In this document: positions 31,191 through 46,272 of the stretch, piece after piece | Numbering within the stretch: the stretch's first letter is position 1 | How the letters are laid out: every line of letters begins with the position of its first letter | Origin: an uncultured Gammaproteobacteria bacterium | GTDB lineage: Bacteria > Pseudomonadota > Gammaproteobacteria > GCA-001735895 | Length of the DNA: 55,679 nt | Assembly (NCBI GenBank): GCA_937984095.1 | Contig: CALJYH010000121.1 | Location: 1 to 55,679, forward strand | Reading direction: 5' to 3' | Made by a program: the position numbers and the translations under genes | Notes under the pieces: model-generated | Told to the model about the DNA's origin: nothing | The model's database searches: none | What the model saw: only the letters and a program-made list of their open reading frames with translations

Positions 31191-32189
31191 CTAGACCGAT
31201 TGGTTTGTGTCGGCGATCAGGCTCAGGATTTCAAACATTACGGCGGTGGCGAAATGCGAGGTTTGCCGATTGGGGTGATCCTTGGTTGGCATCAGGCATA
31301 CCACGTCACCGCCGATGATGTTTTTCCCGCGCACGCAACGTAATAATTCCATCACTTCATCGACCTGGAAACCCTGGATACCACATTCGAGATTAGCCAC
31401 GCCGGGACATATGGTGGTATCCATGCAGTCCAGGTCAAAGGTGATATACAGCGGCGCATCGCCAATGCGATCGTTAATCAACTCCATGGTTTTCTCAGGC
31501 CCCAGTTCACGATAACGTTTGATCGGCACCACTTCGTAACCGAGATCAGAACTGGTTTTCCACCAGTCGAGCGTTCGTGGGTTGCCGCGCATGCCGATCT
31601 GCACGCTATGCGCGGTATCGATGTAACCGTCACGCACCAGGTAAGCCGCCCAGTGCGCCGCGGACTTGACCGCACCGAGGAAATGAGGAACCTGCTCGTA
31701 AGCATCGGTATGGGCATCGAAATGCAGAAATGCAGCCTTGCGCCCATCAGTCAAGCGAGCCTTGTCACCGGAAATGGCCTGCATGATGCCGCCCGTAATG
31801 GCATGGTCACCACCGATCGACACCGGGCGAGTGCCGGCGGCGTCTAGAGTGCGGTAAAAGTCGGTAATACGCTCGATGCAGCGCTCATTGTCATTCGCTT
31901 CCGGCAAGGGTACGTCACCCATGTCCCCAATGCGGCAGCTCTGCCAGGGATCGACCTGGAACTCTGAATGCACCCGGCGCGACATAGCGGAGACATCGCG
32001 CACCGCGCGCGGCCCGAGGTGCTGATCGCGTTCTGTAGTTCCGTTGCCGGTCGAATGCGGAACGCCGACCAGCGCAATATCAAGTTTTGCCGGATCACGC
32101 TCGATCGGGCATCTGAACAAGGTCGGAATATCCCACCAGTAAAGACCTTCCAGCATCATCCTGTCTTCGGCAGATAAGTTATCGCTCAT
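31191..32189 (-). CDS. arginase/agmatinase-family ureohydrolase (guanidino-compound hydrolase)
   Basis: Metal-site motifs SIGGDHAIT, FDAHTD and FDLDCMD. GAGGAA RBS. Confidence 0.85.
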   Translation of the reverse strand: MSDNLSAEDRMMLEGLYWWDIPTLFRCPIERDPAKLDIALVGVPHSTGNGTTERDQHLGPRAVRDVSAMSRRVHSEFQVDPWQSCRIGDMGDVPLPEANDNERCIERITDFYRTLDAAGTRPVSIGGDHAITGGIMQAISGDKARLTDGRKAAFLHFDAHTDAYEQVPHFLGAVKSAAHWAAYLVRDGYIDTAHSVQIGMRGNPRTLDWWKTSSDLGYEVVPIKRYRELGPEKTMELINDRIGDAPLYITFDLDCMDTTICPGVANLECGIQGFQVDEVMELLRCVRGKNIIGGDVVCLMPTKDHPNRQTSHFATAVMFEILSLIADTNQSV

Positions 32190-32207: not shown

Positions 32208-33038
32208 TTAGTAGGCACGCTTTTGGGATGCGCCCTGGTATAAAATATCTGCCCAGTTGCGGTTTGCCTTTTCGCGCTCGTTAACTCCTTCGGGATCCAT
32301 ATCGTGGCTGGGCCGCTTGAGATAAACAAAATCCGGCTGTGCACAATTACCTCGCATCGGCAGCCAGTAGTTTTCACCCAGGGTCTGACGTGCACCGGCG
32401 GGCATGTAAGCCTGCATTGCGAATCCGATCCGCCGTTGTTGACTCCGGTTCGGCTGCGACCCATGGATTACCTTTGCGTGGTGCAATGACATTTGTCCGG
32501 GTTTTAGAATCAAATCGACTGCAGTTGATTCGTCGATGTTCTGTATTTCCTGGCCACGGGTCAGAATATTGTCTTGGTGGAAGGTTTCCTGGTGCGGTTG
32601 TATCGAATTCTGATGACTTCCCGGAATCATGCTCATACAACCGGTTTCACGATTACTTGCAGTTAACGCGACCCAGGAGGTGACATAGTTGTGCGGCGTA
32701 ATACCCATATAGGTCGCATCCTGGTGCCAGCTTACGAAGTGACTGGTTTGTGGTTCCTTGATAAACAATACGCTACCCCACAGCGCGAAGTCGCGTCCAA
32801 TCAAATCCTCGACCGCATCCAGAATTACGGGGTGATGTGCCAGTTCATCGAGAAATTTAAAGGCCAGGTGTGGATTGTTGCGATTCTCGGCATTTAGCTG
32901 ATCGGGATACTTCGCTTCCGCCGATCTCAGGCGCTGTTCGTATTCCGCGGCCTCGTCTTCGGAAATCACATGGATGGGCGCTATGAATCCCTGCTCGCGA
33001 TACTGCTCTACCTGTTGCTGCGAAAGTACTTTACCCAC
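32208..33038 (-). CDS. PhyH-family Fe(II)/2-oxoglutarate oxygenase
   Basis: FVSWHQDATY (HxD) and HHAKVIHGSQPNRS. GTG start. It lies 18 nt upstream of the ureohydrolase. Confidence 0.8.
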   Translation of the reverse strand: MGKVLSQQQVEQYREQGFIAPIHVISEDEAAEYEQRLRSAEAKYPDQLNAENRNNPHLAFKFLDELAHHPVILDAVEDLIGRDFALWGSVLFIKEPQTSHFVSWHQDATYMGITPHNYVTSWVALTASNRETGCMSMIPGSHQNSIQPHQETFHQDNILTRGQEIQNIDESTAVDLILKPGQMSLHHAKVIHGSQPNRSQQRRIGFAMQAYMPAGARQTLGENYWLPMRGNCAQPDFVYLKRPSHDMDPEGVNEREKANRNWADILYQGASQKRAY

Positions 33039-33125: not shown

Positions 33126-33329
33126 ATGAAAAAACTCGACAAACAAACGCTGATGGGTATCCGCGACCAGTTCGGCAGTTACGCCTGGGACGATGCGGAA
33201 ATTTCGGAGTTGGTGGACCCGCAGCTGGGTATCATCACCGGCTTCCAGGAACTTCTCGACCAGCTCGAGGTATTACGTAAAATCGACCTCGAAGCAATGC
33301 CCCCCGCCGGCGATATAATCACCAAATGA
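33126..33329 (+). CDS. GatC/AtzG-like small amidase partner
   Basis: 67 aa, acidic, ending ...LEVLRKIDLEAMPPAGDIITK as GatC-type subunits do. Its stop overlaps the amidase ATG as ATGA. Confidence 0.5.
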   Translation: MKKLDKQTLMGIRDQFGSYAWDDAEISELVDPQLGIITGFQELLDQLEVLRKIDLEAMPPAGDIITK

Positions 33330-34687
33330 GCGCCTCGCCGGCGTTTGCGCCGATCACCGAAATCAACCTGCGGTTGCGCAATGGCGATCTCAGCGCCATT
33401 GAATTGGTCAATTTGTATACGGACCGAATCGAGCGCTTTGGTGAGATCAGCAAGGCCTTTATCAGTCTCGATACCAAAAGCGCACTCTCAAAAGCAGAAA
33501 TAATTGATGAAAGTTTTAAAGATGATCTGCCTCTCAATGGAATTCCCTACGCCTGCAAGGACTTGTTTGATGTTAAAGGTCTGCCGACCACGGCAGGGTC
33601 GCAGGTGCTGCAGGATAACGTGGCGCAACAGGATGCGGCAGCGATCAAATGCATGAACCAGGCCGGCGCAATATGCATCGGCAAAAACAACCTGCACGAG
33701 TTTGCCTACGGCGCGACGGGTGAAAATACGCTTTACGGTACGGTGCCCAATCCCTATGACCAGTCACGTCTTGCAGGCGGTTCGAGCAGCGGTTCGGCTG
33801 CTGCGGTGGGCTTCGGCCTTTGCGCCGCGGCGCTCGGTACCGATACCGGTGGATCGGTTCGTGCACCCGCTGCCCTTTGCGGGCTGGTGGGTTTCAAACC
33901 AACCTACGGGCGCATCAGTACCGAGGGCGTCATACCTTATTCATGGACACTTGACCATGTCGGCACACTTACCCGTAGCGTGGCCGATGTTGGGCTTTTA
34001 TTTGATTCACTGGCGCTAGAGTCGCAACCTCCAGTGCAGAAAGGTCTGGATAATCTGACTATTGGAATCCCGGAGTCTTTCTTTTTTAATCGATGCGACA
34101 GCGAAATTCTAGACAGCATCGACGCGCTAATGAATTTTTTACGCCAGGCCGGTGCGAATCTCAAACCGGTATCCATGCCATCGATGGAATATACCCGCAC
34201 GGTATCACTGACAGTACAAATGCCGGAGGCACTGTCCTATCACAATCGCTACCTGGAACAGCGAGGGCATTTGTACAGCCAGGATTTCCGCGCGGGGCTG
34301 GCGCTGGGCCAATGCCTGCTTGCCGAGCAATATATCCGCGCCAAGCGTTTCATCGAAACCTACCGCAACGATATGGGCAAGGTATTTGCAGAGGTCGATG
34401 TGCTACTGACGCCCGCAACGCCGGTGATAGCGCCGAAAATCGGCGTGGTCGAGGTGACCGTAGATGGATATTCCGAGCCCGCCGGAAACGCAATAACCCG
34501 GTACACCTCTTTCTTTAACATGACCGGGCATCCGGCAATTACACTGCCTTGCGGCTTACACGGCGAGGGCTTGCCGATCGGAGCGCAGCTAGTCGGCAGG
34601 CATTTTGGCGACGAGCAATTAATCGACATTGCAGAACAGATTGAATCTTGCTACGACTTCGAACTGCCTCTGCCGAACCTGGATTAA
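33326..34687 (+). CDS. amidase-signature amidase (GatA/AtzE-like)
   Basis: GGSSSGSAAAV and catalytic Lys in PYACKDLFD. 453 aa. Confidence 0.85.
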   Translation: MSASPAFAPITEINLRLRNGDLSAIELVNLYTDRIERFGEISKAFISLDTKSALSKAEIIDESFKDDLPLNGIPYACKDLFDVKGLPTTAGSQVLQDNVAQQDAAAIKCMNQAGAICIGKNNLHEFAYGATGENTLYGTVPNPYDQSRLAGGSSSGSAAAVGFGLCAAALGTDTGGSVRAPAALCGLVGFKPTYGRISTEGVIPYSWTLDHVGTLTRSVADVGLLFDSLALESQPPVQKGLDNLTIGIPESFFFNRCDSEILDSIDALMNFLRQAGANLKPVSMPSMEYTRTVSLTVQMPEALSYHNRYLEQRGHLYSQDFRAGLALGQCLLAEQYIRAKRFIETYRNDMGKVFAEVDVLLTPATPVIAPKIGVVEVTVDGYSEPAGNAITRYTSFFNMTGHPAITLPCGLHGEGLPIGAQLVGRHFGDEQLIDIAEQIESCYDFELPLPNLD

Positions 34688-35597: not shown

Positions 35598-35867
35598 ATG
35601 ACTGATCCAACAATCGCAGACAACAAGCCGGCCAGGGTAGCGCTCGAGAAAGACAGGAAATACTATTTCTGCATGTGCGGACGAAGCAACAATCAACCTT
35701 TTTGCGATGGCTCACACAAGGGCAGCGAGTTTTCACCAATGGCCTTTGTTTGCGATGCCAGCAAGGACTATTACCTGTGCCGATGCAAGCATAGCGGCAA
35801 CAAACCCTATTGCGATGGCACCCACAAACAGTTCGACGATGACCAGGTCGGAAAGCCCCTCAGCTAG
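35598..35867 (+). CDS. CDGSH iron-sulfur domain protein (two motifs)
   Basis: CMCGRSNNQPFCDGSH and CRCKHSGNKPYCDGTH. Confidence 0.85.
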   Translation: MTDPTIADNKPARVALEKDRKYYFCMCGRSNNQPFCDGSHKGSEFSPMAFVCDASKDYYLCRCKHSGNKPYCDGTHKQFDDDQVGKPLS

Positions 35868-35880
35868 TTTAAGTTGAGAT

Positions 35881-36363
35881 TTATCCGCAAAGTTGCGGAC
35901 TTCCCCCCTCACTGGCGTCTTTGCCATATACCATGCGTTCTATTCCGGCCCAGTAGGCTGCCGCCTCGCACATCGGGCAGGCCGGTGACGACGAATACAG
36001 AATGCAGCGACTGAGATCGCGCGAATTGAGTCGACGCGCCGCATCCCGAATGGCTTCCATCTCGGCGTGAGCAGTTGGATCCTGATTGATTATTACATGA
36101 CTCGGGGATTGACCAACGATTTTACCATCGCGAACTACGACCGCCCCATAGCCCTGATCACCGCTTTCGATTGCCCGTTTTTGCATGGCAAAGGCGCGTA
36201 CTATGAATGACGTATCATCGCTTCGATCAGGCTGCTCGATTGATTCCGATTCCGCACTGCTCGCCAGGCTATCACGCGCTGCGAGCACCGGGAACATTCC
36301 CGCCACAGCAAGCACTAGTGCTCGCCTTTTTACGTTTGGTTGTTTAACCATGATTATTCCCAT
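35881..36363 (-). CDS. CDA-fold nucleoside/nucleobase deaminase with N-terminal export signal
   Basis: Zinc motifs HAEMEAI and PCPMCEAA. The N-terminus is VKRRALVLAVAGMFPVLAARDSLA. An alternative start lies at 36351. Confidence 0.8.
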   Translation of the reverse strand: MGIIMVKQPNVKRRALVLAVAGMFPVLAARDSLASSAESESIEQPDRSDDTSFIVRAFAMQKRAIESGDQGYGAVVVRDGKIVGQSPSHVIINQDPTAHAEMEAIRDAARRLNSRDLSRCILYSSSPACPMCEAAAYWAGIERMVYGKDASEGGSPQLCG

Positions 36364-36469
36364 CCAGACAATTCGTTCAGTTTAACATTTCCCGCACAAA
36401 ACCCACTTGTGCAGCAAGCAGGCAAACGCATAAAATACCCGGCCTTCTAACTGATACCTGGGGACTAAC

Positions 36470-36634
36470 ATGGGCGAATGTCCGGTATGTGCGGCCGAAG
36501 TCGAAGTGGCCAACGATGCAATATCTGGCGAGTTGCTGGTCTGCGAAGACTGCGGTGCCGAACTCGAACTAATCAAAACTGATCCGGTTGAACTGGCTGA
36601 AGCGCCTTCGGCCGAAGAGGACTGGGGTCAGTGA
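36470..36634 (+). CDS. lysW: LysW-type amino-group carrier protein
   Basis: 54-aa ORF absent from the track, [54 protein letters not shown]. It has a zinc ribbon (CPVC/CEDC) and an acidic tail. Its stop overlaps the lysX GTG as GTGA. Confidence 0.8.
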
Positions 36635-37467
36635 AAATCGGCCTGCTACATTCGCTGATCCGAAAAGAAGAGAAACTTCTGATCGAAGCATTTCAAAAAG
36701 CGGGTGTGGAACCGATCATGATCGACGATCGCAAGTTGATCATGGACTTTCACAGCGCCCCCGATATCGACATCCTGGTCGAACGTTCAATCAATCACTC
36801 ACGCGCACTGCATGCGCTGCGGCTGTTCGAAAGCGCCGGAGTATGCTGCGTCAACTCACACAGGGTCGCACAGATCTGCGGTGACAAGTTGCTGACCACC
36901 GCCGCGCTGAAGGATCATGGTATCGCGCAGCCCGAAAGCAGGGTCGCTTTTACCGAGGAGTCGGCGCTTGCCGCGATCGAGGAACTGGGCTACCCGGTAG
37001 TTTTGAAACCAGCCGTTGGCTCCTGGGGTAGATTGCTTTCCAAGATCAACGATCGCGATGCCGCCGAGACGGTACTCGAGCACAAGACCGTGCTCGGCAG
37101 CTACCACCACTCAATTTTTTATATTCAGCAATATATCGACAAGCAAGGTCGCGATATCCGCAGTTTCGTGGTCGGCGATGATTGCATTGCTGCCATTTAC
37201 CGTAGCTCCGATCACTGGATCACCAACACCGCCCGCGGCGCCCAGGCGAGTAAGTGCGAGGTGACTGCCGAGGTCGCTGAAATTTCGCTGGCAGCGGCGA
37301 AAGCAGTGGGCGGCGGGATTGTCGCGGTCGACTTGTTCGAAAGCGACAACGGCTTGCTGGTCAACGAGGTCAACTACACGATGGAATTTCGCAACAGTAT
37401 CGATACCACGGGGGTCGATATTCCCCAGGTCGTCGCAAACTACGTCATCGGCCTTGTGAAACAATGA
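36631..37467 (+). CDS. lysX: LysX-type ATP-grasp carrier-protein ligase (RimK family)
   Basis: [55 protein letters not shown] and [26 protein letters not shown] closely match Thermus LysX as I recall it. Confidence 0.9.
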
Positions 37468-38486
37468 TCAAGGTCTCGATTGTCGGAGCCTCGGGTTACA
37501 CCGGTGGCGATTTACTGCGCATCCTGTTATTCCACCCGCAGGTCGAAATTCAACAGGTTACCTCGGAGCGGCACGCGGGCCGACTGGTTTCCAGTGTGCA
37601 CCCCAACCTGCGTAAAATCTGCAGACACAAATTTGTCTCCGTTGCCGAACTCGAGCCTTGTGACGTGATGTTCCTGGGGTTACCGCACGGACAAATGATG
37701 AATCGCCTGGCTGAATTTGAAGGCCTGGCCGACACCTTGATCGATTTATCTGCCGATTTTCGACTGCGCGACAGCGACGCTTTCGAAACCTGGTATGGAA
37801 AACCACACAGCTGCCCGCAAAAACTCGCCGAGTTTGTCTACGGCATTCCAGAGCTTCACCGTGCGGAAATGAAAGCTGCGAAAAGAATCTCGGGTGCTGG
37901 CTGTAACGCTACCGCGACCATTCTCGCGCTGCATCCGCTTTACCAGGCCGGCGTAGTCGAATCGGCCGTGGTTGAGGTAAAAGCCGGCTCCAGCCAGGGT
38001 GGCAATGTAGTCAGTGAAGGCAGCCATCATCCGGAACGCAGCGGTGCAGTGCGCTCCTACAAACCAACCGCCCATCGTCACCTCGGGGAAATCCAGCAGG
38101 AACTGGGCGCAGAAAATATTCATTTCTCGGCGACCTCGATCGAGATGGTGCGCGGAATCCTGGCAACCTGTCATGTTTTTCTGAACCAGGACCTGGAAGA
38201 AAAAGATATCTGGAAGCTCTACCGCGGCGCCTACGGAAACGAACCTTTTATCCGCATCGTCAAGGAGCGCAGCGGTATCCATCGTTATCCGGAACCGAAA
38301 ATTCTGGCTGGCAGTAATTACTGTGATATCGGCTTCGAGCGCGACCCGCACAGTAATCGACTGGTCGTGATCAGCGCACTGGATAACCTCATGAAAGGCG
38401 CGGCGGGCCAGGCAGTGCAGGCCTTCAATATTGCGCAGGGATTCGACGAAACCACGGGACTCGAATTTCCTGGACTGCACCCCTGA
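37464..38486 (+). CDS. lysY: LysY/ArgC-type carrier-linked acyl-phosphate reductase
   Basis: [21 protein letters not shown] fold and catalytic Cys in [13 protein letters not shown] overlap with lysX. Confidence 0.85.
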
Positions 38487-38498
38487 TTCTGCACCGAC

Positions 38499-39134
38499 AT
38501 GTGTCGCATTCTCTATGCTCGAGCCGAGACGCAATTTTCGATTGCGGAGTTACTCGCACCCTTCGCCGAGGTCTCACGCGATAGCCGCGAGTTCCAGGGT
38601 CACGGTTGGGGCTGTGCCTGGCGCGAAGACGACGGTTGGCATCAATACCACGATATCCGCCCGATCTGGGAGGATGATCTGGAGCAATTTGGGCACACTC
38701 AGCTGTTACTGGTGCATGCGCGCAGCGCGTTTCGCGATGAGGGTATCGTCATCGAAAACAATATGCCCTTCTCCGACGGTGAGTCGATTTTCATCTTCAA
38801 TGGTGAGTTGCGCGGAGTACGAATTAAATCGGAAGGTCGTATCGGTGCAGAAAAAATCTACAACTATATTCGCCGCTTCGACAAGGGCGATAAATGCCAG
38901 GCCACCAATAAGGCTGTCGACATAATCAAAAAACGCAGTGCCTACGTGCGCGCGATGAATATTATTCTCTCCGACGGAAAACAATCGTGCCTGTCCACCA
39001 GTTACGGCGAAGACCCAGAATACTTTCAAATGCATCAGAAACATCACCAGGACCTGCATCTGGTATGCTCGCAACCGTTCGCTGGAGACAGCGACTGGTC
39101 CACAATCGCTAACAACACGACGATCGAATTATGA
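38499..39134 (+). CDS. class II (Ntn) glutamine amidotransferase-like protein
   Basis: N-terminal Met-Cys (MCRILYA), HGWGCAW, LLLVHARSAFRDEG, NNMPF and FIFNGEL follow the layout of YafJ/EgtC-type Ntn amidohydrolases. Its stop overlaps the lysZ ATG. Confidence 0.7.
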   Translation: MCRILYARAETQFSIAELLAPFAEVSRDSREFQGHGWGCAWREDDGWHQYHDIRPIWEDDLEQFGHTQLLLVHARSAFRDEGIVIENNMPFSDGESIFIFNGELRGVRIKSEGRIGAEKIYNYIRRFDKGDKCQATNKAVDIIKKRSAYVRAMNIILSDGKQSCLSTSYGEDPEYFQMHQKHHQDLHLVCSQPFAGDSDWSTIANNTTIEL

Positions 39135-39922
39135 TGCTGATAAAAATCGGCGGCGGCGAACGAATTAATCTCGAAGCCGCAATCGAAGATCTGGCGACAC
39201 TCGAGCAGCCATTTGTCATCGTGCATGGGGCCAACGTACTACGCGATCAACTGGCGCAACAACTGGGTAAGGAAAAGACGGTACTCACTTCTGTCTCAGG
39301 ATACAGCAGCGTTTTTTCCGATCAGGATGCAATCGATATCATCATGATGAGTTACTCGGGCCTGCGTAATAAGCAGATCGTTGAACTGTGCCAACGTAAT
39401 GAAATCAACGCAGTCGGTCTGACCGGCCTCGATGGTCGCCTGGTCCAGGGGGAACGTAACAAGGGCATCCGTGTGCGTGAAAACGGTAAGACCCTGATCA
39501 AGAGGGATCTTTCGGGTAAACCGCGCTCCATTAACAGCCAGTTATTGACGCTATTGCTGGAAAGCGGTTACTGCCCGGTGCTGACGATCCCCATCGCCGA
39601 CGAAAAAGGCTTTGCAATAAACTCGGAGAACGACGATATCGTTGCCCGGATTGCGAGCGCACTCGAAATCGATACGGTGATTCAATTGATCGAAGCGCCC
39701 GGGTTTCTCGATGATCCCGCTGACGAAACCTCGCTGGTAACCAGCATGAGTCTCGGTGAGCTAGAGCGTCGTGAAGCGAACGTCGAAGGACGTATCAAAC
39801 GCAAGCTGCTCGCGCTGACACGACTTTGCCAGGACGGCAAAACCCGGGTCATCATCGCCGATGGCCGCCGCGAGCAACCCATTATCAGCGCACTCGAAGG
39901 TGCCGGGACACATATCTCATGA
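39131..39922 (+). CDS. lysZ: LysZ/ArgB-type carrier-linked amino acid kinase
   Basis: Amino-acid-kinase fold: LIKIGGG, VIVHGAN, GLTGLDG. Confidence 0.85.
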   Translation: MMLIKIGGGERINLEAAIEDLATLEQPFVIVHGANVLRDQLAQQLGKEKTVLTSVSGYSSVFSDQDAIDIIMMSYSGLRNKQIVELCQRNEINAVGLTGLDGRLVQGERNKGIRVRENGKTLIKRDLSGKPRSINSQLLTLLLESGYCPVLTIPIADEKGFAINSENDDIVARIASALEIDTVIQLIEAPGFLDDPADETSLVTSMSLGELERREANVEGRIKRKLLALTRLCQDGKTRVIIADGRREQPIISALEGAGTHIS

Positions 39923-41073
39923 CTGATTACAAAGCACTCGAACACGAATATGGCATACCGTTACAGGCAAAACGCGACCTGGTTGCGGTCCGTGGAAACG
40001 GGGCCTTGCTTTACGACGAGCAGGATCGGGAGTATATCGATTGCGCCGCCGGAATCGCCGTCGCCTCACTCGGGCACTGCCATCCAAAGCTGATCGTAGC
40101 GATCAAGCAACAGGCCGAAACCCTGATTACCTGCCCTAACATCATGTACAACGACGTGCGCTCGAAACTGCTCAAAAAACTGGTAGAGGTAACCCCCGAG
40201 AGCCTGACTCGCGCCTATTTATGCAACTCGGGTGCCGAGTCGATCGAGGCCGCACTCAAGTTTGCGCGCCTGCACACCGGGCGGACCAACTTTGTCACCG
40301 CGATGCGCGGTTTCCACGGTCGCACCATGGGTGCGGTCAGCGCCACTTACACACCAAAATATCGCGAAGCATTTCAGCCGCTGATTCCCGGCTTCGACTA
40401 CGTACCCTTCAATAAGATCGAAAAGCTCGATGCCGCGGTGAACGACAATACCGCGGCCGTTATGTTCGAGCTGGTGCAGGGTGAAGGCGGCGTCAATCCG
40501 ATCCAGGCCGACTATCTCGCGGCCGTGCGCAAGCTCTGTTCCGAGCGTGGAGTATTGCTGATTATCGATGAAATCCAGACTGGATTCTGTCGAACCGGGA
40601 GATTCTTTGCCTGTAATCATTTCGACCTGCAACCCGACCTCATGTGCGTGGCCAAGGCGATGGGTGGCGGTGTACCCATTGGCGCCACCCTGCTTAATGC
40701 CGACATTAATATCGAGCCCGGGCTGCATGGTACGACCTTCGGCGGTAACCCGTTGGCCTGTGCCGCGGCGTTAGCGGCGATCGATGTCTATCAGACCGAT
40801 AACCTGGCACAACGGGCTGCGGAGCTGGGTGATTATTTCGAACAACAGCTAAACGTTGCCGACCTTTCCCAGGTGCGTGCATTGCGCCGACTCGGCTTGA
40901 TGATCGGTATCGAGCTCAAGCAAAAGGTGCAGGGCAAGCTGGCAGAGTTACTAGAGCATCGCATCATCGCGTTGCCGGCAGGGCCTAACGTGATCCGAAT
41001 GTTGCCGCCGTTAGTCATCGAGAAAGAACAGATTGACCGGGTCGTCAAGACCTTACGCCAGTTGCTGGCTTGA
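39919..41073 (+). CDS. lysJ: LysJ/ArgD-type class III aminotransferase
   Basis: [29 protein letters not shown], and PLP Lys context [11 protein letters not shown] 39919 overlaps the lysZ stop. The track extension back to 39826 is rejected. Confidence 0.85.
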
Positions 41074-41256
41074 CCTGCTTTTAGCAGATACGGATATCCA
41101 CGTCGACAATACCGGGGAAAGTTGACGAGGATCACATTTTGTATGTTTATTACTATCTGCTGGTTTTTGTCCATTCGATACTCTTATATAATCCCCTTTT
41201 TTATATGATGGAACATTCGAAACGTGTCCAGTCCCGCTAATCAAGTTGAATTAAAT

Positions 41257-42861
41257 ATGACCTCTACTCCGGATCTCACTCCCTACGGTATCAGCGACAC
41301 CATTGAAGTCCTGTATAACCCCAGTTACGAGACGCTGTTCGCCGAAGAAACAGCCGCTAATCTGAATGGTTTTGAAGTGGGTCATTTGACCGAGTCGGGT
41401 GCAATCGCCGTCGACACCGGTGACTTTACCGGCCGTTCTCCCAAGGACAAGTACCTGGTGCGTGACGACACGACCCGGGACCAGATCTGGTGGTCGGACC
41501 AGGGTGAAAACGACAACAAGCCGATCAACATCGAGACCTGGAACACCCTGCGTCAACTGGTTACCGACCAGCTATCGGGTAAAAAACTGTTCGTGGTCGA
41601 TACCTTTTGTGGCGCCAGCCCCGAAAGCCGTCTCAAGGTAAGGTTCATTACCGAGGTTGCGTGGCAGGCCCATTTCGTCACCAATATGTTCATCCGGCCC
41701 AACGTCGAAGAACTAACCGATTACGTGCCGGATTTCGTCGTGCTTAACGGGTCCAAAACGTCAAACCAGAATTATGCGGCGATGGGACTGAACTCTGAGA
41801 ATTTTGTAGCGTTCAACATGACGCAAGGAATGCAGATCATCGGTGGTACCTGGTATGGCGGTGAGATGAAAAAGGGCATGTTCTCGATGATGAACTACCT
41901 GCTACCGCTCAAGGGAATGCCTTCGATGCACTGTTCGGCTAACGTCGGAAAAGAAGGTGACGTCGCGATTTTCTTCGGGCTTTCCGGAACCGGCAAAACC
42001 ACCCTGTCTACCGATCCCAAGCGCCGCCTGATCGGCGATGATGAGCATGGTTGGGACGATGAAGGAATTTTCAATTTTGAAGGCGGCTGTTATGCCAAGG
42101 TTATCGATTTAAGCGCAGAAGACGAACCCGATATCTATCGCGCGATCCGCCGCGATGCATTGCTGGAAAACGTGGTGGTCAACAATGAAGGCAAAATCGA
42201 TTACACCGATAGCTCGAAAACCGAGAACACGCGGGTGTCTTACCCGATTTATCACATTGATAATATCGTCAAACCCGTGTCCAGGGCCGGTCACGCCGGT
42301 CGTGTCATATTTCTGACCGCCGATGCCTTTGGCGTACTGCCCCCGGTTTCAAAATTAACACCTGAACAGGCACAGTATTACTTTCTTTCCGGTTTTACCG
42401 CCAAGCTGGCCGGCACCGAACGCGGCATCACCGAGCCCACCCCGACTTTTTCCGCCTGCTTTGGCAAAGCCTTCCTGTCGCTGCACCCAACCCGGTATGC
42501 CGAGGTACTAAATAAGAAAATGGATCAGTTTGGCAGCCAGGCGTACCTCGTGAATACCGGCTGGGACGGCAGTGGTAATCGTATTTCGATCAAGGCAACA
42601 CGCGCGATAATTGATGCAATTCTCGATGGATCTATCGACAGCGCGGAAACCGTAACGCTACCAACCTTCAACCTGAGTGTACCTACCAGCCTGCCCGCGG
42701 TGGACGTAAAAATTCTGGATCCGCGTAACAGTTATGACGATGGTTCCGAGTGGGAATCAAAAGCAGCCAGGCTGGCTTCCCTGTTCATCGATAATTTCGG
42801 GCAATACACCGATACCGATGGTGGCAAGCAGCTGGTATCAGCAGGTCCATTACTCAATTAA
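41257..42861 (+). CDS. pckA: phosphoenolpyruvate carboxykinase (ATP)
   Basis: [27 protein letters not shown] and [12 protein letters not shown]. The first ATG, at 41257, is used as the start. Confidence 0.95.
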
Positions 42862-45099: not shown

Positions 45100-45786
45100 A
45101 TGGCCAGATTACCGCGGTACGCGATTAAAAATCAGCCGCAGCATATAATTCAACAGGGACGAAACGGGCAACAAATCTTCTTTGAAGAACAAGATTACCA
45201 GTATTTCCACGATTGCCTCGAGGCTGCAGCATACAATTATCATCTCAAAATACATGCCTATGTGTTGATGCCTAATCACGTGCATCTGCTGGCAACACCG
45301 GGTAACACCGACAGTATCTCACGAACCATCCAGTCCATTGGTCGAAACTACGTCCAATACTTCAATGAGTGCATAGGTGGCAGTGGCACGATCTGGGAAG
45401 GGCGTTACCGGGCGACCGTCGTTGACAGCAAGAGCTATTTGCTGACCTGCAGTCGCTACATCGAGTCAAACCCGGTTCGAGGTGGACTGGTTAAAAAACC
45501 GGCGGATTATCGCTGGAGCAGCTACGCGCATAACGCGCTTGGGAAGGCCGAAGAGATGATCAGCGCGCACCAGGAGTACCTGAAACTGGGTAACAATGAT
45601 AAGGAACGGGTAAATGCCTACCGCGCCCTGTTCAAACAAAGCCTGTCCAGCCAAACCGTGCAGCTAATCACCGAAACCGCGCTTAAAGGTTGGGTACTGG
45701 GTGATAGCAAGTTTGCACGCAAAATCGAAAAGCTCAGCGGTCGACGCGCCTTCCAGCTGCCCAAGGGCCGTCCCCGGGGTACTTGA
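45100..45786 (+). CDS. REP-associated tyrosine transposase (RayT, IS200/IS605-like Y1)
   Basis: HUH motif in MPNHVHLLATP and catalytic Tyr context SRYIESNPVRGGLV. 228 aa. Confidence 0.8.
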   Translation: MARLPRYAIKNQPQHIIQQGRNGQQIFFEEQDYQYFHDCLEAAAYNYHLKIHAYVLMPNHVHLLATPGNTDSISRTIQSIGRNYVQYFNECIGGSGTIWEGRYRATVVDSKSYLLTCSRYIESNPVRGGLVKKPADYRWSSYAHNALGKAEEMISAHQEYLKLGNNDKERVNAYRALFKQSLSSQTVQLITETALKGWVLGDSKFARKIEKLSGRRAFQLPKGRPRGT

Positions 45787-45798
45787 CCGGCAGGCCCC

Positions 45799-46272
45799 AT
45801 GAACGACGCTGAGGACAAACGTGGACCCGGCCTGAAGTTTCCACCTCCTTTATTGGTGATTGCGATCATTGGTTTGGGCTATCTCGCAGACTGGATCAAA
45901 CCTCTGCCAATAACAAACGGGGATCTCCTGTGGTTGAGTGGCGTCGCGCTAATCGTGTTATCTGTGACGCTAGCTCTAATTGCTCTATTCCAATTCCTCG
46001 AAGCTAAAACCCACGTCGAACCCTGGCACCCCACCACAACAGTCATCGACAAAGGCGTTTTCCGCTATAGCCGCAATCCTATCTATGTTACTTTTTGTCT
46101 GGCGACGGTTGGCGGCGGCCTCGCCTTGAACAGCTGGTGGATAGTCATGGGTGTTCCCGCCCTGGGATACCTGTTGCAAAAGCTGGTGATTGAACGCGAA
46201 GAGGCTTATCTCGAAAATAAGTTCGGCAAGGTATATCTTGACTACAAACAGCGGGTCAGACGCTGGCTTTAA
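45799..46272 (+). CDS. isoprenylcysteine carboxyl methyltransferase (ICMT/PEMT) family membrane protein
   Basis: TM helices, GVFRYSRNPIYV and EREEAYLENKFG. Confidence 0.7.
   Translation: MNDAEDKRGPGLKFPPPLLVIAIIGLGYLADWIKPLPITNGDLLWLSGVALIVLSVTLALIALFQFLEAKTHVEPWHPTTTVIDKGVFRYSRNPIYVTFCLATVGGGLALNSWWIVMGVPALGYLLQKLVIEREEAYLENKFGKVYLDYKQRVRRWL

Follow-up and report, generated by a model that had tools for sequence, protein, structure and literature searches.

A LysW amino-group carrier whose gene specifies glutamine at the C terminus, and a candidate Cys-Ntn replacement for LysK in its operon

We report a lysW gene whose 54-aa product has glutamine as its last encoded residue, in an operon that contains no M20-type LysK gene and instead carries a gene for a 211-aa protein (here called Ntn) predicted to be an amidohydrolase. 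The gene lies in a 55,679-nucleotide stretch of DNA from an uncultured gammaproteobacterium (the window). In a reading that we consider moderately probable, the Ntn enzyme takes the place of LysK and hydrolyses whatever gamma-amide residue 54 of LysW carries, so that one protein would both deamidate Gln54 and release the product of the pathway. The C-terminal Glu of the EDWGE motif is treated in the field as invariant and as defining for amino-group carrier proteins, and recent papers still do so.

The gene and the codon in question are located as follows.

36470–36634, + strand: lysW, 54-aa zinc-ribbon amino-group carrier protein with the tail EEDWGQ; ATG at 36470, TGA at 36632–36634
36629–36631, + strand: CAG codon of Gln54, the position where the canonical attachment Glu54 stands

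A preliminary description of this DNA had identified the ORF as a LysW with a Gln end, and this identification held. The protein scored 59.7 bits with the NCBIfam model TIGR01206 (lysW; cut-off 53.2) and 64.2 bits with the Pfam model PF21344 (Zn_ribbon_LysW; cut-off 27), codon 54 is CAG, and lysX follows directly 3'. With the archaeal domain model NF041070 it scored 62.5, under the cut-off of 75. The four zinc-ribbon cysteines are C4, C7, C25, and C28, and both NCBI and JGI name homologues of this protein 'LysW'. The DNA pattern APxxxEDWGQ-stop has a single match in the window, and 100 shuffles gave none. The closest genome locus among the matches listed (L063, from an uncultured marine gammaproteobacterium MAG) encodes a LysW that is 100% identical. 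In characterised LysW and ArgW proteins the substrate is carried on the gamma-carboxyl of the C-terminal Glu, within the motif EDWGE (PMC10433800), in agreement with the preliminary description. The encoded tail of the window LysW, EDWGQ, departs from this motif; the EDWGE feature could be acquired post-translationally if Gln54 is deamidated, and the protein is read here as a pro-carrier.

The lysW gene is the first of a tightly packed operon with the order lysW-lysX-lysY-Ntn-lysZ-lysJ, spanning 36470–41073. The adjoining lysX and the ArgB-, ArgC-, and ArgD-like lysZ, lysY, and lysJ give it the genomic context of the carrier pathway. The genes that follow lysW are listed below.

36631–37467, + strand: lysX, RimK-family ATP-grasp ligase; its GTG start overlaps the lysW stop; TIGR02144, 342 bits
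37464–38486, + strand: lysY, ArgC-type reductase; TIGR01850, 391 bits
38499–39134, + strand: Ntn ORF, 211-aa stand-alone class-II glutamine-amidotransferase-like putative amidohydrolase that starts Met-Cys-Arg
39131–39922, + strand: lysZ, [LysW]-aminoadipate kinase type; NF010659, 248.5 bits (cut-off 223)
39919–41073, + strand: lysJ, ArgD/LysJ-type aminotransferase; its ATG at 39919 overlaps the lysZ stop; TIGR00707, 446 bits, and LysJ_Th_th, 450 bits
41224–42861: pckA, downstream of lysJ, after the operon

The window LysX keeps the GSWGR motif (in the sequence AVGSWGRLL), by which LysX recognises the LysW tail (PMC10433800). No M20 LysK gene is present in the operon, and an HMM built from the genes of LysK-type clusters matched nothing in the 55.7-kb window. 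An Rfam search of positions 1–55679 gave no family at gathering score, with no lysine riboswitch ahead of lysW, and a promoter and terminator scan of 35800–41400 yielded nothing useful 5' of lysW.

Several other genes surround the operon. Upstream lie an arginase-family gene (31191–32189, − strand), a gene for a PhyH-type dioxygenase (32208–33038, − strand), a gene for an amidase-signature enzyme (33326–34687, + strand) 1.8 kb from lysW, and a 160-aa TadA/CMP-deaminase-like ORF (35881–36363, − strand) that is divergent from lysW. Synteny of the amidase gene was confined to close relatives (8 loci among the matches listed, all of them Q-type gammaproteobacterial MAGs, including L063 and L010), and the same TadA/CMP-deaminase-like neighbour was found in L002 next to a close LysW relative. 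An IS200/Y1-transposase-like ORF (45100–45786, + strand; Pfam Y1_Tnp, E 2e-12) is followed downstream by a PEMT/ICMT-like methyltransferase gene (45799–46272).

The terminal Gln turned out to be widely shared. Among the LysW relatives with at least 70% identity, 106 of 111 end in Gln and 3 in Glu, and the remaining 2 have a frameshifted tail. An exhaustive phmmer query of 1.84 billion 50%-identity representatives returned 150 matches, whose intact DWG-x tails comprised 102 DWGE and 12 DWGQ; the sole DWG-x tail with another residue (P0258) is a C-terminally extended DWGD plus 13 aa (…DWGDSEH…). Thus, the Gln end is a recurrent minority state that occurs in about 10% of divergent LysW families and in many phyla, and the tabulation of terminal residues that the preliminary description had proposed shows that it is no rare oddity. 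Since intact tails end only in Glu or Gln, bar the extended P0258, the gamma position evidently matters. The LysW-like ribbon also occurs in giant tandem arrays: P0232 has 4696 aa with about 70 separate LysW zinc-ribbon matches (E 2e-36), and P0239 and P0263 are smaller arrays (9 matches in 1052 aa, 5 matches in 2409 aa).

The short contigs of P0235, P0233, P0088, and P0099 were uninformative for gene context, and pattern scans of genome and metagenome collections were therefore used instead. A Q-tail pattern scan with one genome per GTDB species gave at least 119 loci, 116 of these with a recognisable LysW (the Q sample), and an E-tail pattern scan of JGI metagenome contigs gave, as a control, at least 120 loci with 114 E-type LysW loci (the E sample). 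Among the matches listed, the Q-tail loci belonged to Gammaproteobacteria (many of them Arenicellales), Acidobacteriota, Ignavibacteria/Melioribacteraceae, Gemmatimonadota, Calditrichia, Phycisphaerae, candidate-phyla-radiation bacteria, and Methanosarcinales MAGs. At least one cultured organism has the Q-type system, Stygiobacter electus 09-Me (locus L014).

The Gln codon in the Q-type loci (at least 116) is CAG in 72 and CAA in 44; TAA, TAG, and TGA stops are all used, and the overlap with lysX is present in some loci and absent from others. The preliminary description had argued that this overlap constrains the CAG codon. The overlap is real, but the GTGA formed by the lysW stop and the lysX GTG start at 36631 takes in no more of the Gln codon than its third base; it touches the wobble position and has no bearing on the choice between CAR and GAR. 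Since both Gln codons and all three stops are used, selection acts on the amino acid, and the overlap can be discarded as the cause of a fixed Gln. An artefact (a sequencing error, a decaying gene, a pseudogene, or a chance ORF) is refuted to near certainty, because the residue recurs in close relatives and across many phyla with both codons and in intact operons; the HMM scores also speak against it.

For the comparison of tail type with gene content, loci were annotated with the window proteins and with HMMs built from the loci. A cluster was called complete when W, X, Y, Z, and J were all present, and the M20 family of the clusters was confirmed as Peptidase_M20 by Pfam. Among the matches listed, the 39 complete Q clusters all contained Ntn and no M20 gene, with none that had M20 without Ntn and none that had neither, while the complete E clusters fell into 9 that had Ntn but lacked M20, 20 that had M20 but lacked Ntn, and 9 that lacked both. 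The association between tail and Ntn in complete clusters (39/39 Q with Ntn; 9 E with and 29 without) gave a Fisher p of 1.2e-13, a value computed on phylogenetically non-independent loci and on a Q sample from species-representative genomes set against an E sample from JGI metagenomes. The E sample by itself showed the same exclusion, with M20 in 0/9 Ntn clusters versus 20/29 non-Ntn clusters (p = 3e-4), and the M20 gene was found in 0 of the at least 116 Q-type loci. The gene orders were W-X-Y-N-Z-J (the commonest, and that of the window), W-X-Y-Z-J-N in a second lineage, and W-X-Y-Z-J-K in the M20 clusters; by its position after lysJ, Ntn therefore occupies the usual LysK slot in one lineage.

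Many Ntn-type clusters contain a homocitrate synthase gene, which indicates lysine synthesis via the aminoadipate route. Directly 5' of lysW, ORFs that resemble argininosuccinate synthase or lyase in sequence were seen in L029 and L036 (Q-type) and in many E-type loci. Because such ORFs adjoin some clusters and homocitrate synthase and homoaconitase genes lie inside others, the carrier clusters of some lineages appear to serve arginine synthesis and those of other lineages lysine synthesis. Since 9 complete E clusters lack both Ntn and M20, LysK probably occurs off-cluster in some genomes.

An Ntn homologue was not found in 50 of the 116 Q-type loci among the matches listed; in most of these the locus (8 kb) ends before the Ntn position, an early end that was individually confirmed for L008, L013, L029, L036, L046, L112, and L121 only. 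Apparent exceptions were inspected and set aside. In L008 and L013, homocitrate synthase and homoaconitase genes interrupt the cluster and the locus stops short of the Ntn position. In L044, the Ntn gene was missed by BLAST and picked up by the HMM. The M20-like ORFs of L203 are weak matches 3.4 kb past an Ntn-type cluster, one of them on the opposite strand, and were not counted as LysK. In L112 (a Chloroflexota MAG), a Q-terminated lysW-lysX pair stands alone at 827–1883, further lys genes being absent within 7 kb; downstream of this pair lie genes that are glycosyltransferase-like or code for membrane proteins. Four Q-type loci (L022, L028, L037, and L109, two of them from Methanosarcinales MAGs) encode two LysX paralogues in the order W-X-Y-X-Z or W-X-X-Y and end before the expected Ntn position; the paired LysX recalls LysX/ArgX of Sulfolobus.

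Within Ntn-type clusters, Glu and Gln ends interchange between close relatives. A close relative of the window LysW ends in E (P0040, locus L001), and its locus retains the Ntn gene, with 72% identity between the Ntn proteins. Among the matches listed, 12 E-terminated metagenome clusters are also of the Ntn type, and the nearest LysX neighbour was in every case from a Q-terminated cluster: L188 and L014 share 91% LysX identity, and the pairs L218/L039, L233/L077, L175/L019, and L181/L016 share 75–81%, whereas the nearest M20-type LysX reached only 47–64%. The LysW proteins of L188 (E end) and L014 (Q end) are about 90% identical. By parsimony on a rough neighbour-joining LysX tree, the tail switched between E and Q about 17 times and the cluster type between Ntn and M20 about 5 times. 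That Ntn is kept beside Glu-ending LysW in L001 and the 12 metagenome loci argues for a role of Ntn beyond deamidation.

We then consider the Ntn protein itself. Pfam returned no match to it at E 1e-3, and no Peptidase_M20 domain. The NCBIfam EgtC model TIGR03442 gave 45.1 bits (E 7e-12), far under its cut-off of 218.65, and the gene stands in a lysW operon instead of an egtABCDE context; the protein is thus no EgtC equivalog. A phmmer search of the PDB found EgtC alone (E 9.5e-4). An AlphaFold2 model (pLDDT 80.9, pTM 0.82) had EgtC as its best Foldseek match (E 4e-12, TM 0.76), followed by the class-II glutaminase domains of GlmS, GFAT, and PurF. Across 75 cluster-encoded homologues with 30–94% identity, the residues Cys2, Arg3, Gln33, Gly36, Gly38, Trp57, His73, Arg75, Ser76, Pro90, Phe100, Asn101, Gly102, and Tyr175 are invariant. 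The protein starts MCR, with Cys2, the presumptive nucleophile, directly after the initiator Met, and Cys2 and Arg3 are conserved in 75/75. The features of the four-layer Ntn fold are likewise present, with the Asn-Gly oxyanion motif at N101-G102 and a carboxylate-binding Arg at R75, both invariant and assigned these roles by alignment. Judged from alignment and model, the 211-aa protein is consistent with a Cys-Ntn amidohydrolase in which Asn-Gly forms the oxyanion hole.

Position 118, which aligns with an Asp of EgtC ('...VDSA...'), is never Asp in the 75 homologues (65 Glu, 6 Gln, 2 Ala, 1 His), a difference that may relate to the binding of a peptide-linked C-terminal residue instead of a free one. 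The family counts over 3000 proteins in databases, which label them 'hypothetical' or 'glutamine amidotransferase'. EgtC cleaves an amide between a gamma-glutamyl and an alpha-amino group and thereby removes the gamma-glutamyl part (PMC9103826). That bond is of the same kind as the one between LysW-gamma-Glu54 and N-alpha-lysine, and its carbonyl is the same as that of the Gln54 carboxamide.

As the simplest account of these findings, a mechanism can be proposed in which Cys2 of Ntn would attack residue 54 of LysW at its gamma-carbonyl, irrespective of the amine bound there. On nascent LysW-Gln54, ammonia would leave to give LysW-Glu54, which LysX could load with 2-aminoadipate or glutamate; LysZ, LysY, and LysJ would next act on the loaded carrier; and Ntn would finally cleave the amide between LysW-gamma-Glu54 and N-alpha-lysine (or ornithine), letting the product out and regenerating LysW-Glu54. 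With a release enzyme that deamidates as well, codon 54 could be GAR or CAR almost interchangeably, in Ntn-type operons only. Replacement of LysK by Ntn would explain why the two are mutually exclusive, why they have an operon slot in common, and why Ntn persists beside E-tails, and deamidation of Gln54 by Ntn would explain that Gln is found only with Ntn, that only Glu and Gln are seen, and that the two flip freely. The Gln state could additionally gate the use of the carrier on the presence of the release enzyme.

Some points stand against this explanation. LysK could be encoded elsewhere in Q-type genomes. The pocket of a class-II amidotransferase usually accommodates an alpha-amino group that is free, and the nitrogen of residue 54, unlike that of the usual pocket ligand, sits in a peptide bond. 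In addition, the 106:3 dominance of Gln in the clade of the window would need drift or a mild advantage if Gln and Glu are neutral.

The preliminary description had put forward, among its options, that the carrier must first be deamidated or that loading occurs on the alpha-carboxylate in the manner of RimK. Deamidation first, probably by Ntn, is the option that best fits the comparative data, with Gln found only in the Ntn clusters of the sample. The Ntn enzyme might, on the other hand, be a maturation deamidase only, which turns Gln54 into Glu54 while an M20 LysK or ArgE elsewhere in the genome releases the product. The sighting of Gln only together with Ntn accords with such a role, as do the E clusters without a local M20 gene, where an off-cluster LysK is possible. 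We nevertheless consider it unlikely, because Ntn is kept with Glu-ending LysW (in the 12 E-terminated metagenome clusters and L001), where deamidation is unneeded, and is mutually exclusive with LysK: M20 never lies within Ntn clusters, yet it lies within 20/29 non-Ntn clusters, and in one lineage Ntn sits in the LysK slot after lysJ. A division of labour in the opposite sense is rather less probable. Here, Ntn would be the release enzyme and Gln54 would be deamidated otherwise, either spontaneously or by a general amidase such as that encoded at 33326–34687, whose gene lies only 1.8 kb 5' of lysW. However, the amidase is syntenic in only the 8 loci of close relatives, whereas Gln together with Ntn extends across many phyla, and spontaneous deamidation of Gln is slow as a matter of general chemistry. 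In a variant of the same idea, Ntn would use LysW-Gln54 as an acyl donor in one ATP-free transamidation onto the substrate. Cys-Ntn enzymes do form gamma-glutamyl thioesters that are in principle open to attack by an amine, but lysX is retained in all clusters, so that ATP-dependent loading is evidently still used.

Alpha-carboxylate loading of residue 54 by LysX, with an irrelevant side chain and an Ntn enzyme that cuts that bond or is unrelated to it, is the least probable of these readings in our view. It draws on the membership of LysX in the RimK family, whose namesake extends alpha-carboxylates, and on the lack of a gamma-carboxylate on Gln. Yet other end residues would then be expected, and the DWG-x tails comprise 102 DWGE, 12 DWGQ, and a lone extended DWGD (P0258); in the clade of the window, 106 proteins end in Q, 3 in E, and none in a different residue. 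LysX also keeps the GSWGR tail-recognition motif, its identity reaches 91% when an E-type cluster is compared with a Q-type one, and the closest solved relative of the partner enzyme, EgtC, cleaves gamma-glutamyl amides. We therefore disfavour this option and return to the reading in which Ntn both deamidates LysW and releases the product.

Overall, the presence of Gln in about one-tenth of divergent LysW families, abundant marine Gammaproteobacteria (Arenicellales and relatives) included, challenges EDWGE as a textbook feature of the carrier. The strict link with Ntn and the exclusivity towards LysK suggest a function for an unnamed family, as a non-orthologous replacement of the last step combined with a maturation step. 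This also matters for annotation, as metabolic reconstructions would otherwise score such lysine or arginine pathways as incomplete, with LysK missing. Full-text searches of the freely readable literature for LysW in connection with LysK, amidotransferase, Ntn, EgtC, deamidase, or glutamine found nothing relevant, and a Gln-encoded LysW pro-carrier with a non-homologous hydrolase in the place of LysK thus seems to be a variant of the LysW pathway for which we found no prior description.

Compared with the LysW/ArgW pathway of Thermus thermophilus, Sulfolobus, Thermococcus kodakarensis, and Natrinema gari (LysW-LysX-LysZ-LysY-LysJ-LysK), the window operon has in common the zinc-ribbon carrier with its acidic tail and ...EDWG- ending, the RimK-family LysX with GSWGR, and the ArgB-, ArgC-, and ArgD-like LysZ, LysY, and LysJ; homocitrate synthase in many sister clusters, pointing to the aminoadipate route to lysine, is a further likeness. 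It differs in encoding a terminal Gln instead of the attachment Glu, in having no M20 LysK, and in the presence of the putative Ntn amidohydrolase between lysY and lysZ, or after lysJ in the second lineage. LysK is an ArgE-like M20 metallopeptidase that releases lysine or ornithine from LysW, and the role proposed for Ntn would be equal to it, namely hydrolysis of the LysW-gamma-Glu to N-alpha amide. The two share an operon slot in one lineage and exclude each other in clusters, but their fold and chemistry are unrelated, Ntn having an N-terminal Cys as its predicted nucleophile and no metal site. Lacking a Peptidase_M20 domain, the Ntn protein can at most be analogous to LysK and stands outside its family.

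EgtC of the ergothioneine pathway (PDB 4zfj, 4zfk, and 4zfl), the best structural match, has the Cys2 nucleophile and the Asn-Gly oxyanion motif in common with Ntn. Identity is only about 20%, Ntn occurs outside ergothioneine clusters, and its acyl part is presumably the C-terminal residue of a protein, in contrast to the free gamma-glutamyl group of EgtC. CheB and CheD deamidate chemoreceptor Gln residues to methyl-accepting Glu, which is a likeness in that the gene specifies Gln where a functional Glu is needed and an enzyme of the same pathway unmasks it; there, however, the residues are internal, the context is signalling, and the enzymes are unrelated.

A parallel in logic only is the Pup/Dop system of Actinobacteria, in which a small tag is encoded with a C-terminal Gln or Glu depending on the lineage, the Gln is deamidated before an ATP-dependent gamma-glutamyl ligase acts, and the same enzyme afterwards cuts the gamma-glutamyl isopeptide: Dop acts as the deamidase of PupQ and also takes Pup off its targets (PMC8599861). 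The systems are not homologous. The one described here consists of a zinc ribbon (LysW), an ATP-grasp enzyme (LysX), and a predicted hydrolase of the Cys-Ntn type, whereas Dop is glutamine-synthetase-like and nucleotide-dependent; furthermore, the carrier studied here protects an amino group in biosynthesis, whereas Pup tags proteins for degradation. By this analogy, we would put at even chances the broader proposal that the 'deamidate, ligate, de-conjugate' logic evolved a second time, independently, in bacteria and some archaea and within primary biosynthesis, with one Cys-Ntn amidohydrolase that would license the carrier and also release its product.
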